Part shown: positions 3,001-6,451 of the stretch, in pieces | Position numbering within the stretch: the stretch's first letter is position 1 | Layout: each line of letters opens with the position of its first letter | Notes under the pieces: model-generated | What the model was told of the DNA's origin: nothing | What the model saw: the letters and a program-made list of their open reading frames with translations, nothing else | The model's database searches: none | Origin: Bdellovibrionales bacterium | GTDB taxonomy: Bacteria; Pseudomonadota; Alphaproteobacteria; UBA9219 | Direction of reading: 5' to 3' | Assembly: GCA_050180745.1 (NCBI GenBank) | Contig: JBFXDW010000002.1 | Coordinates: forward strand, 1 to 38,056 | DNA length: 38,056 nucleotides | Translations under genes and position numbers: made by a program

Positions 3001-4468
3001 TTGCCATCTTCCCATCATCTACCGCTTGGGCATTGGTAGCAGTTAAGTCACCTGTTGTTGTTGCAAAAGCAACGCTGCCCGTTTTTTGAACAAGCTCATC
3101 GGAGGTCATGTCGGACAGAACAAGGCCGGAGAAAAGCGAAGCGGTAAGAATGTCATTCACAAGTGTCTTGCGGCCAAGAATATTGGTTTCCGCTGCACCA
3201 GAGCTGCTGAATTTCCAAAGGTTATCTGCAAAACTGATTGTCAACACATCTTGCGGTTCTGACAATGACAACACGCCATTTAAAGCATTGGCATTTGTGT
3301 AAAGCCCACCAACAACGCTATTTAAATCGACGACCTTGTTGAGAGCCAACTCTCCAGCGTACTGCACCAATACTTTTGATATCGTAGCAGCTTCACCTGT
3401 CAGGTATGAAGATACGTTCGAAAAAGCCAAAGTCTTCCCAAGATCATTGGCGTCGTTGAACATGGACTGTATCGCCGTGTTGCCAAACACCCGCGTCCCT
3501 TCGTCAATGGCGGAATAAGCCAGAGTCTGACGAAGAACTTTATCTGTGGAATAGGAACTTGCAATGGTGCCAGCCCCTATAGTCTCGGCGAAACTAGAAT
3601 CAAACAACAAAGGAATAAAATATTGAGCCGCATTCTTCCAATCTTGTTCAACACCCTTGGCATACATCGTCATGACAAGAAGAGCCGCATCATGGCGATC
3701 AAGGGGACCTAGATCAACGCCAGAACCGAGACTTTGAGCTTCTGAGCTCAAGCTTTGCCCCGTCCGATTAAAAGCAAGAAATTCTCCTTCAACACAATAA
3801 GCCGTGCTGCTAACAATGCTCATGGGGCCTGTTGGCATCTGCCCGTTATAAACATCCTGCAAGAGCAGTTGGGAAGCGGTTCTATATTTAGCTTGCAGCT
3901 CTAGTCGTGTATTTTCCGCTTCTGGATCTGAAAATGGCGTGTCATACGGAGTAACTCCGTTATAAGCATCAAGTGCATATTCATATGTGTTCTGCGCAGC
4001 AAGCTCATAGGCCATATTGTCGAAAATAGTTACTGTCTCGTATTTGACAGCCCCAACCAATCCCGCCAAGCCACCGCCGAGAGAATGACCCGTTAAAGTG
4101 ATGTTTGTAACGTTGGGGGCATCAGCAATAGTGTTGTAAAATTGAAACGCAAGATCAGCTTGCACAGCTTCGGGACTTCCAGTTCCAACGCCCCAACCGT
4201 TCCAAAGATCAAGAGTCGTCGCCCAAATCGAAGTTTCATCCGTGCCCCGATACGAAATAACCGTACTCCCATCCGCCTCCTGATATGCTACCGCATAGAA
4301 ACCAGCGGCAATATCGAGTCGCGTTATTCCATCCTCTCCCAAAAGAATCGAAGAGTCCTTCGATATTGTAACATTGCCTATAGAAGTCCCAGTTAAATTG
4401 ATTCCTGATCCATATCCACGGTTATAGGCATCCATCGACAAAATGGCTTTAAAGAGGTCTGTGCTCAT
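1..4468 (-). CDS. Giant RTX-type secreted protein with N-terminal class-3 lipase domain (first 1489 codons; ORF continues past the left edge)
   Basis: The ATG at 4468 overlaps the upstream stop (ATGA). Hand translation gives [22 protein letters not shown]...[23 protein letters not shown]...[15 protein letters not shown], with the Ser codon at 4082-4084. RTX nonapeptides [35 protein letters not shown] lie at ~2882-2986 and [16 protein letters not shown] at ~2570-2617. Asp-rich loops [25 protein letters not shown] lie at ~1625-1795. A [33 protein letters not shown] module (haemolysin-type Ca-binding related) lies at ~107-313. I checked the frame by hand at several points and found it open. The ORF is absent from the track because it has no stop inside the window. 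Confidence 0.85.
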   Translation of the reverse strand, partial: [1489 protein letters not shown]

Positions 4469-5154
4469 TGTGTGTTTCCTATCCGAAAGTCCTCATAGTC
4501 GTATGTTAGGGGATGTCCATAAGGGAGCGACTTTCTCCATTCTGGAAATCCGGACCCCTTCTTAAAAAACGGTAGATTATTCTCAATCCCCGTCGTCACA
4601 GGCTCATCGGTGATCTCGATGATTGCAGAAGCCAGCTTCACGCCTTCGCCAAACGTTGCCGCGAGGTTATTCGGATCAACACGCTCCACACTCTTGGGAT
4701 CGTTGATGTCCCTAAACCGCACCAGAATCGGAAAATAATCAGGCTCAAGCTGTTTTGTTGTGCCACTCTTCAATAAAGACAACACATTTAAATGCCAAAC
4801 GCCCGTTGGCGTTGTGCTGCCGTTATAACCGTGTTTTCCGAACATAGATAAAAATACATTCTTTCCATAATCCACGCCCAACGTGTCGTTACGCATAATC
4901 GCGAACAACAACCCACGCGGCCCAAGATCAATCACCACCGCTTCGCCTTTGACGCGTACATATGAATGAGCCTGCGGCAGCAGATCCGGCCCTGTTGCCA
5001 CATACACCTCCCTCACCACACTGCCCGTCTTGATCCCTTCTGGAGTCTCGACATTTATTGTCATCCGATAATTCCATGCGCCAAACGGATAGATCACATA
5101 TAAACATCCGATGAATGCCAGAATACCGAGCACAATAACCTTGAGCGTCTTCAT
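4465..5154 (-). CDS. Membrane-anchored hypothetical protein, paralog B (candidate immunity/accessory partner of the adjacent lipase)
   Basis: Track ORF 4465..5163. I prefer the ATG at 5154 (MKTLKVIVLGILAFIGCLYVIYPF, one N-terminal TM helix). Its leader cacgaaaggtgcgcggcATG matches the leader of paralog A, and it forms an ATGA overlap with the upstream ORF. Its stop overlaps the lipase-RTX ATG (ATGA, 4465-4468). Roughly half of residues are identical to paralog A (RF.DINDPKSVERVDPNNL, IEITDEP.TTGIE). I recognise no family. Confidence 0.7.
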   Translation of the reverse strand: MKTLKVIVLGILAFIGCLYVIYPFGAWNYRMTINVETPEGIKTGSVVREVYVATGPDLLPQAHSYVRVKGEAVVIDLGPRGLLFAIMRNDTLGVDYGKNVFLSMFGKHGYNGSTTPTGVWHLNVLSLLKSGTTKQLEPDYFPILVRFRDINDPKSVERVDPNNLAATFGEGVKLASAIIEITDEPVTTGIENNLPFFKKGSGFPEWRKSLPYGHPLTYDYEDFRIGNTQ

Positions 5155-5532
5155 GCCGCGCACCTTTCGTGTGATGTTGTTGTTTCTAAAACGGGTTCAT
5201 TTGCGTTCGCCGCTGTTTTATAAAACTGAAAAGCCAATGCTGCCTGCTGACCTTCAACACTTCCCGTCCCTACGCCCCAGCCATTCCAAAAATCGTTACC
5301 AAATGTAAATGGAACTGGATTATCCGTTCCCCTGTATGAAATCGTCACAGACCCATTCGCATCCTTATACGCTATCGCGTAAAAACCGGCGGCTTGAGCG
5401 TCAGCGTCGCCTTTCGATTTTAGAACAGTGGCGTTGCCAATTTGTGTTCCAACGGCATCCGAATTCTCGCCAAATTTTATCCCGGCACCATATCCGCGGT
5501 TGTAGAATTGCTTTAAAAAGGTCACTGCTCAT
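5151..5532 (-). pseudogene. Decayed 5' fragment of a class-3 lipase gene, paralogous to the first ~110 codons of the RTX-lipase
   Basis: Track ORF 5151..5525 (GTG start) reads ..[50 protein letters not shown]. This is collinear with residues 14-110 of the big protein but stops before the GHSLGG nucleophile. The ancestral ATG at 5532 (MSSDLFKAI versus MSTDLFKAI) is out of frame with the rest because 14 nt are missing relative to the full-length copy. Confidence 0.6.
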
Positions 5533-6233: not shown

Positions 6234-6421
6234 GTCGCGTGCCTTTCGTGTGGAAGATATTTTGATGATAGTGAAAGAAAAGATTCTTGAGACGGGCACA
6301 AAGGAGCCATCGTCTTTGCGGGTAGGAAGGGCTGCGTCTTTTGCATTGACATGAACACCTTCATCACAAACGTTATAGATAGATCGTGTCGGGGCGTAGG
6401 AGTAGCCTCTTTTTTAACGCA

Positions 6422-6451
6422 ATCATAAGGCTATTTTCAAACCCTTGTCAA
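6422..6451 (-). promoter_or_regulatory. Candidate sigma70-type promoter for the small-protein/lipase-RTX transcription unit
   Basis: The minus strand reads TTGACA (6451-6446), an 18-nt spacer, then TATGAT (6427-6422). It lies in the 200-bp gap between the hlyD-like stop (6501) and the first small-protein gene. Confidence 0.35.

Follow-up and report, generated by a model that had tools for sequence, protein, structure and literature searches.

A candidate type I-exported lipase toxin with a putative new family of periplasmic immunity proteins and an upstream orphan module in a Bdellovibrionales bacterium

The stretch analyzed here (hereafter the window) comprises 38,056 nt of contig JBFXDW010000002.1 (positions 1 to 38,056) from a Bdellovibrionales bacterium. 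It contains a type I secretion system (T1SS) operon, followed by genes for two small proteins of one family, S_A and S_B, and by the beginning of a gene for a giant RTX protein whose N-terminus is a lipase domain. We favour, with a probability of about 60%, the reading that the T1SS of this locus exports a lipase toxin, that the two small proteins belong to a new family conferring immunity in the periplasm (the S family), and that an orphan module of the same kind lies upstream. The evidence consists of the gene anatomy, the fold and motifs of the lipase, synteny across the whole family, arrays of orphan S genes, purifying selection on these genes and the predicted topology of S. An initial annotation, made from the window alone, had proposed a toxin/immunity module with an extra orphan gene, and this proposal is supported by synteny, orphans, topology and lipase fold.

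The genes tolC, hlyB, hlyD, S_A, a lipase fragment, S_B and lipase-RTX all lie co-oriented on the minus strand (Table 1). The last four had been described as downstream of a complete T1SS operon, and this is borne out by the open reading frames (ORFs) and by matches to TIGR01844, TIGR01846 and TIGR01843: TolC, HlyB and HlyD each exceed the curated NCBIfam cut-offs for type I secretion components. An ATGA stop/start overlap had also been announced for every junction, and all three are present, at 5532-5529, 5154-5151 and 4468-4465. S_A has an alternative start, which yields 228 aa. The lipase-RTX ORF exits the window at its start, with 1,489 codons inside. The complete gene was found on a public 26.7-kb Logan contig (L139) which carries an identical S_B gene. 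It encodes 4,029 aa with 10 RTX stretches and 9 HCBP_related repeats, and no further recognisable domain beyond these and the lipase. RTX repeats start at about residue 490, and the part of the protein encoded in the window matches Pfam HemolysinCabind (1.8e-14) and HCBP_related (2.4e-9).

Judged by its motifs and predicted fold, the N-terminal domain is very probably an active Ser-Glu-His lipase or phospholipase. A class-3 lipase with the motif GHSLGG had been noted at this place. Scanned alone, the domain clears the Pfam thresholds (Mbeg1-like 24.2 vs 21.1, Lipase_3 23.1 vs 22); GHSLGG occupies aa 127-132, and the Ser129 codon is at 4084-4082, as had been claimed. Glu229 (3784-3782) and His259 (3694-3692) complete the predicted triad, and the three columns are conserved in 28/28 (Ser129), 25/28 (Glu229) and 28/28 (His259) sequences. 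More than 600 homologues of the domain were found; in all of them it is located at the extreme N-terminus, with an invariant Met1, and a recent Pfam entry, PF26363, is assigned to most of them. The AlphaFold2 model of residues 1-420 (pLDDT 88.5, pTM 0.90) has as its best solved match in Foldseek a type VI secretion system (T6SS) effector, the Tle of Enterobacter cloacae, whose lipase domain was solved together with its immunity protein (9cys_A, E 8.6e-6, prob 1.0), with an identity of about 19% and a TM-score of 0.45 over the target; feruloyl esterases and fungal class-3 lipases come next. Sequence profiles give the same neighbours: fungal class-3 lipases at E 2e-4 and Tle (7ubz_B) at E 4e-4. 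The profile alignment with Tle shares a Y-x-V-E-G-E-x-L motif, which should hold the Tle catalytic Glu. For the E. cloacae protein the published triad is Ser341/Glu393/His448, and a 'Tle6' family has been proposed in the same paper (PMC11470151). By these sequence and model comparisons the nearest characterised relative of the domain is an antibacterial toxin, the likeness being remote and that of the general class-3 lipase fold.

Membership of lipase family I.3 was also considered and not retained: the profile reaches only E 0.036 with PML (2z8x), and fungal class-3 lipases and Tle score better. Family I.3 lipases (Pseudomonas sp. MIS38 PML, Serratia LipA, P. fluorescens TliA) likewise associate an N-terminal GxSxG lipase, a C-terminal RTX part and a T1SS, but they are nutritional or industrial enzymes of about 50-65 kDa without a partner gene, far from the size of the present protein.

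S_A and S_B are 51% identical (E 2e-77), close to the 50% estimated at first, and S_A has every family-invariant residue. The family had not been recognised in the initial annotation, and our searches did not give it a name: neither protein matches Pfam or NCBIfam, precomputed Pfam annotation is likewise blank for all of 120 homologues, and these are labelled 'hypothetical protein' in every source consulted. The S profile has 0 matches among PDB sequences, and a Foldseek search of the model against PDB and BFVD returned only noise (E >= 6e-3, TM <= 0.24), namely LolA/LolB/RseB-type half-barrels. Lipid binding by S was not accepted on the basis of the LolA/LolB-like matches, which are far from significant. 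An exhaustive profile search found 5,858 cluster representatives at 50% identity, 4,711 of them at E <= 1e-10; the best 150 of the 5,858 are single-domain proteins of about 200-330 aa. The family occurs in Alphaproteobacteria (rhizobia, sphingomonads, Micavibrio), Nitrospirales and others. One N-terminal helix followed by an extracytoplasmic domain of about 200 aa had been expected, and the AlphaFold2 model of S_B (pLDDT 91.5) indeed shows a helix at residues 2-21, then a mainly beta domain. In 116 of the 120 homologues an N-terminal hydrophobic signal-anchor or a lipobox directly precedes the conserved domain; the other four, which have no anchor, are truncated gene calls. Lysines precede the helix, which by the positive-inside rule would place the domain outside the cytoplasm. 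From these sequence features, S is predicted to be anchored in the inner membrane, with its domain of about 200 aa facing the periplasm.

To locate both families, loci were taken from species-representative genomes (58 seeded with S, in a search built on 10 closer S sequences, and 80 seeded with lipase), and S and lipase were mapped by hidden Markov models. Such a neighbourhood survey had been suggested in the initial annotation. By this survey, 46 of 58 full-length lipase domains are immediately preceded by an S gene, which ends at most 150 nt before them, and nearly all of these S-preceded domains sit in large ORFs with RTX motifs. N-terminal lipase fragments are likewise preceded by S (65/77). 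The 104 non-redundant S/lipase junctions are distributed as follows: 39 are ATGA overlaps, 16 are 1-nt overlaps, and altogether 100 are of 20 nt or less. Adjacency and translational coupling of S and lipase are conserved across these loci and hold in both directions. The layout S, fragment, S, full gene is common, with arrays of up to four units (L006, L016, L065, L068, L076, L115), and one locus, L075, has three complete S/lipase modules. As the same layout recurs in dozens of unrelated genomes, that of the window is not due to chance. The order hlyB-hlyD-S-lipase-RTX is repeated in several sphingomonads, and plasmid NZ_CP069304 of Shinella sp. PSBB067 (L222, 7616-15959) carries an hlyC-like acyltransferase gene, S, a 'calcium-binding protein' gene which is the lipase-RTX, and genes for a T1SS ABC protein and HlyD, one after another in this order.

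Two variants of these neighbourhoods were observed. Some S-coupled lipases are short (about 480-690 aa) with few or no RTX motifs; they come from Nitrospirales and alphaproteobacterial metagenome-assembled genomes (L076, L068, L075). S + lipase-RTX modules are also present in metagenome-assembled genomes of Micavibrio, an obligate predator of bacteria (L059, L060, L091; also P0124, M. aeruginosavorus), where use of the lipase on prey is a possibility.

S genes are frequently found without a lipase. In about 22 of the 58 loci seeded with S, a lipase is absent up to a distance of 10 kb, and S-only tandem arrays occur in six of the loci (L024, L041, L047, L049, L051, L053). Downstream of S-only loci there are either no genes or unrelated housekeeping genes (DUF3095, tetrapyrrole methylase), and coupling of S to other toxins was rejected on this ground. 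Among complete plasmid records, 13 carry S and only 5 carry the lipase; 8 of the 13 have no lipase match anywhere on the replicon. One case is pMLb of Mesorhizobium japonicum MAFF 303099 (L221, 3901-5675), with two tandem S genes beside an IS5 transposase gene and, at E <= 1e-5, without any match to the RTX-linked lipase family on the whole plasmid. This plasmid is conjugative, and a divergently oriented 'alpha/beta hydrolase' gene lies just downstream of the S pair. Orphan S genes are nevertheless maintained: 48 of 57 S genes upstream of truncated lipase fragments are intact, and pairs of orphan S genes have dN/dS values of 0.08-0.35, i.e. they are under purifying selection. S copies of one locus have a median identity of 46% (typically 35-65%), and such divergent arrays, in a family of this size, fit diversifying immunity alleles.

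The window contains one orphan of this type. The sequence between S_A and S_B had been called a decayed lipase 5' fragment, correctly: it is 55% identical to residues ~15-113 of the intact lipase, a 14-nt deletion inside the AILSMDAY motif causes a frameshift, and the fragment breaks off at about codon 113, ahead of the nucleophile motif GHSLGG. On account of the frameshift and of this truncation, we consider it a true pseudogene. Its ATG at 5532 overlaps the S_A stop and its own stop overlaps the S_B start. Homology between unit A and unit B begins about 22 nt 5' of each S start codon, at a common CACACGAAAGG leader. To speak of duplicated genes, as was done initially, is misleading if a recent event is meant: the units are only ~51-55% identical in protein, which rules out a recent tandem duplication as their origin, and by sequence they are old, divergent modules.

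Two further observations were made on these units. The junction between the fragment and the S_B leader (~5160-5185) lies at a short AACATCAC; the same letters occur in the intact lipase gene at codons ~120-122, and their presence at both points suggests a microhomology-mediated join. Codons ~140-190 of S_A and S_B (about 5650-5800 vs 4590-4740) share ~90% DNA identity, synonymous sites included, whereas outside this patch units A and B are only ~55-60% identical in DNA. The patch suggests either gene conversion between the copies or an unusual constraint.

The favoured reading can be formulated as follows. HlyB, HlyD and TolC would export the RTX protein C-terminus first, so that the N-terminal lipase would leave last. 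The class-3/Tle6-like Ser-Glu-His lipase would be the toxic part, and its predicted target is the membrane phospholipids of neighbouring Gram-negative cells, reached from the periplasmic side. S_B and S_A, held by their inner-membrane anchor, would neutralise incoming lipase with their periplasmic domain, and might also neutralise the producer's own leaked or stalled lipase. As S_B would be translated with the lipase through the ATGA overlap, no toxin would be made without antidote. S_A and the dead lipase fragment would represent a displaced older module, S_A being kept, we propose, because it still protects against lipase variants from other strains. That the orphan module lies upstream and retains an N-terminal fragment would follow from the N-terminal position of the toxin in a T1SS substrate. 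A CdiA-like display, with a surface filament first and the toxin delivered last, is conceivable, although purely speculative. Toxicity of the lipase, its binding by S, bacterial targets and entry into the periplasm of the target are inferred. Four patterns together speak for an immunity gene and not for a foldase or an aid to secretion: tight coupling to one toxin family, predicted export to the compartment in which the toxin would act, rapid diversification, and persistence under selection where the toxin gene alongside has decayed or is absent.

Several results weigh against this reading. It is not evident how the 4,029-aa protein, or its lipase, would cross the outer membrane of a target cell, and no pore-forming or receptor-binding domain was recognised in the RTX protein. 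No similarity of S to known immunity proteins was detected in PDB sequence and fold searches. Orphan status of S applies at the level of the locus (±10 kb) or of the replicon. Twelve of the 58 full-length lipases have no S upstream. In one such locus (L138, 4897-5991) an unrelated 364-aa protein, N-terminally membrane-anchored and without Pfam match, ends 13 nt upstream of the lipase-RTX gene; it may be an alternative immunity family. A gene for a HlyC-type toxin-activating acyltransferase, characteristic of RTX cytolysins that attack eukaryotic membranes, is found near 14 of the 58 full-length lipase loci. Such neighbours tie the family to membrane-inserting RTX cytolysins, and its targets may be eukaryotic. 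HlyC/CyaC-type lysine-acyltransferase genes are also found near 13 of the 77 fragments (loci with such genes include L222, L056, L070, L080 and L119), and where the gene is adjacent the lipase-RTX proteins are probably acylated like RTX cytolysins.

The last of these adverse results concerns specificity. When S and lipase identities are compared within loci in the manner of a mirror tree, they do not co-vary (r = -0.10, n = 22). Strict 1:1 cognate specificity is thus not supported. In L076 (3086-4914, 7377-9273) two S genes are 92% identical and their lipases only 50%; L065 presents the reverse, with S at 46% and the lipase N-terminus at 87% identity. From this contrast, it seems that the S/lipase junction is a point at which modules are shuffled. 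Either such recombination takes place there, or what S recognises is a conserved feature of the lipase. Absent co-variation would also be compatible with S not binding the lipase at all, but being an envelope lipid-handling or membrane-repair protein, co-expressed with the lipase so as to cope with products such as lysophospholipids and fatty acids. The sole structural matches of the S model, the half-barrels mentioned above, point in that direction but are at noise level, and both the family-wide coupling to one lipase family and the orphan modules with lipase 5' remnants indicate a specific partnership; we consider this explanation very improbable.

Another explanation is the following: S would be a self-protection inhibitor only, on the AprI/Inh model, and the lipase-RTX protein would be aimed at eukaryotic cells, protists or environmental lipids. 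The producer would then be shielded from its own T1SS lipase folding early, leaking, or retained as a periplasmic N-terminus. The precedent is established: AprI of P. aeruginosa and Inh of Erwinia are periplasmic inhibitors encoded with T1SS-secreted serralysin proteases. In two-step T1SS adhesins, moreover, the N-terminus stays behind in the periplasm. In view of such inhibitors and adhesins, a periplasmic partner alone is no proof of sibling warfare, and the initial argument, that a T1SS substrate bypasses the periplasm so that its partner must guard against siblings, is unsafe when taken alone. Self-protection would also agree with the tight coupling of S to the lipase gene, with the hlyC-type gene that accompanies S in 14 of 58 relatives and hints at an RTX part inserting into membranes as in cytolysins, and with the lack of S/lipase co-variation, expected if S recognises a conserved feature. 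However, a purely cis-protective inhibitor should decay with its enzyme, and yet purifying selection has kept S genes intact next to dead fragments, in arrays of S alone and on lipase-free replicons; arrays of divergent S paralogues are equally hard to explain. AprI, Inh (Erwinia chrysanthemi) and SmaPI resemble S as periplasmic proteins encoded in the operon of a T1SS-secreted hydrolase, presumably shielding the producer envelope, but their target is a metalloprotease and they have no sequence or fold similarity to S. We know of no orphan arrays of these inhibitors. Self-protection alone is, in our view, an unlikely account, and it is the orphan S data that tip the balance to immunity.

A function of S in maturation or secretion appears less probable still. 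S would be a Lif-like foldase, which had been offered as an alternative in the initial annotation, a Tli-like activator, or a periplasmic holder/releaser in two-step export. There is a precedent in E. cloacae, where the lipase 'immunity' protein Tli is also needed for activation of Tle (PMC11470151). With Lif foldases (LipB/LimA) S shares a single N-terminal anchor, a periplasmic domain and a gene beside a lipase gene, to which its coupling looks obligate. Yet the substrates of a classical T1SS are exported in the unfolded state, with no need of a foldase in the periplasm, and the 12 lipases without S have no such helper. The S gene is upstream of the lipase gene, whereas Lif foldases are encoded downstream; these are all-helical and serve lipases of families I.1/I.2 secreted by type II systems, whereas the S model is beta-rich and finds no match among solved structures, be it a Lif foldase, ankyrin Tli or any other. 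Nor would this function leave a role for the orphan S genes and S-only arrays that purifying selection maintains. Gene order, fold and orphan persistence all disfavour a Lif-like foldase.

The reading as toxin and immunity protein was compared with known systems. In Tle-Tli pairs, above all those of the Tle6 group (E. cloacae 7UBZ/9CYS; Slp of Serratia marcescens), the toxin is likewise an alpha/beta-hydrolase with a GHSLGG elbow and a Ser-Glu-His triad, the gene next door encodes a periplasm-targeted protein, as S is predicted to be, and orphan or extra immunity genes are common. The present lipase differs in being the N-terminal domain of a T1SS-linked RTX protein, without VgrG, PAAR or Hcp, and its S gene is upstream and translationally coupled. 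The partner in the Tle6 subgroup is an ankyrin-repeat protein, whereas S consists of one beta-rich domain in which Pfam finds no ankyrin repeats. Orphan cassettes of contact-dependent inhibition (CDI; cdiA-CT/cdiI) and Rhs systems also show divergent immunity genes and truncated toxin pieces beside one full-length toxin. The arrangement described here is their mirror image, with 5'/N-terminal fragments upstream, whereas in CDI and Rhs the C-terminus of the toxin is variable; only one toxin family, the lipase, is seen here against many unrelated activities there, and secretion is by a T1SS.

Among RTX proteins, Bordetella CyaA also associates an N-terminal enzyme and an RTX part exported through HlyB/HlyD/TolC components, and the HlyC/CyaC-type gene near 14 of 58 relatives extends the likeness; in CyaA the RTX part can carry the N-terminal enzyme across the target membrane. 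HlyC-activated RTX cytolysins differ in having eukaryotic targets and no immunity gene. The window has neither a recognisable pore segment nor a match to an HlyC-type acyltransferase (tblastn with the Shinella HlyC-like protein as query). T1SS are seen mainly as exporters of anti-eukaryotic cytolysins, adhesins, enzymes and a few bacteriocins. CdzC/D of Caulobacter are reportedly T1SS-exported interbacterial toxins with an immunity gene, CdzI, in the locus; they are small aggregating proteins of the glycine-zipper kind, CdzI spans the membrane several times, and neither a lipase nor such orphan arrays are involved. The Rhizobium RTX bacteriocin RzcA likewise uses a T1SS for interbacterial antagonism. 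To our knowledge, antibacterial lipases with periplasmic immunity proteins are known for the T6SS only. Full-text literature searches found no description of a T1SS or RTX lipase with an immunity protein, in agreement with the initial statement that none had been described, and a 2012 survey of polymorphic toxins is silent on such a system. Effector-immunity systems and T1SS bacteriocins are already known; the Tle-like lipase as an RTX N-terminus, the S family and the mirror-image orphan arrays are new.

Coordinates of the locus are given in Table 1. The hlyD/S_A gap of 268 nt holds a promoter candidate; the total of promoter-like matches in the region is no higher than in shuffled sequences. 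The window is chromosomal and stems from an alphaproteobacterium without a close relative among species representatives, the best LepA identity being 80%; its other genes include those for LepA, a 628-aa FtsZ, GltX, CysS, a SulP transporter and a pilus secretin and ATPase. The G+C content of the T1SS/S/lipase-RTX block (0.47-0.55) is slightly above that of most of the remaining window (0.41-0.51). This block may be an island inserted at the tRNA-Arg gene, which would mark its boundary. A PEP-CTERM-motif protein (17928-18743, minus strand), a DUF6765 protein (26870-27880, minus strand) and a pilus/secretion cluster with secretin and MshE-type ATPase (31063-37227, plus strand) have no apparent tie to the toxin locus. 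No T6SS genes were recognised among the scanned ORFs (the toxin locus and ten other large ORFs).

Table 1. Elements of the lipase-RTX locus and its surroundings (positions in the window)
Feature	Position	Strand	Evidence or remark
TolC-family outer-membrane channel	11610-10222	-	Pfam OEP 6.7e-60; TIGR01844 type_I_sec_TolC 321 bits vs cut-off 225
HlyB-type ABC exporter with N-terminal C39-like domain	10191-8062	-	TIGR01846 type_I_sec_HlyB 1030 bits; Pfam Peptidase_C39, ABC_membrane, ABC_tran
HlyD-type periplasmic adaptor (membrane-fusion protein)	8060-6501	-	TIGR01843 type_I_hlyD 413 bits, 1e-123
Sigma-70-like promoter candidate 5' of S_A	6451-6422	-	TTGACA-18-TATGAT, 11/12 matches, consensus only
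S_A (small protein A), orphan immunity-like gene, 234 aa	6233-5529	-	N-terminal signal-anchor and predicted exported domain of ~200 aa
Lipase 5' pseudogene fragment	5532-5151	-	Translation, ORFs, alignment of unit A with unit B
S_B (small protein B), immunity-like gene, 229 aa	5154-4465	-	Translation coupled to that of the intact lipase-RTX gene
N-terminal lipase domain (aa 1-420) of the giant RTX protein	4468-3209	-	AlphaFold2 model, Foldseek, profile matches
Rest of the RTX protein in the window (aa 421-1489 of 4,029)	3208-1	-	RTX nonapeptide blocks and HCBP_related repeat
tRNA-Arg(TCT), immediately upstream of tolC	11864-11940	-	ARAGORN and Rfam

With an exporter of three genes, one toxin domain and two candidate antidotes, this locus is sufficient to address how a T1SS substrate may gain access to the periplasm of another cell. 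A wider proposition, to which we give slightly less than even odds, is that of a widespread interbacterial weapon: giant T1SS RTX proteins presenting a Tle6-like lipase last, in mirror image to CdiA, whose toxin is C-terminal and also leaves last, opposed by an S immunity family of ~5,900 clusters that accumulates in upstream orphan arrays, and of which lone copies may also defend prey-type bacteria against predators such as Micavibrio with the same modules. Such a weapon would be the first T1SS-based polymorphic effector-immunity system targeting membranes. If the favoured reading is true, RTX proteins become carriers of interbacterial membrane toxins. This reading would give a function to the large unnamed S family, and would explain the many short 'lipase N-terminus' ORFs scattered in these genomes.

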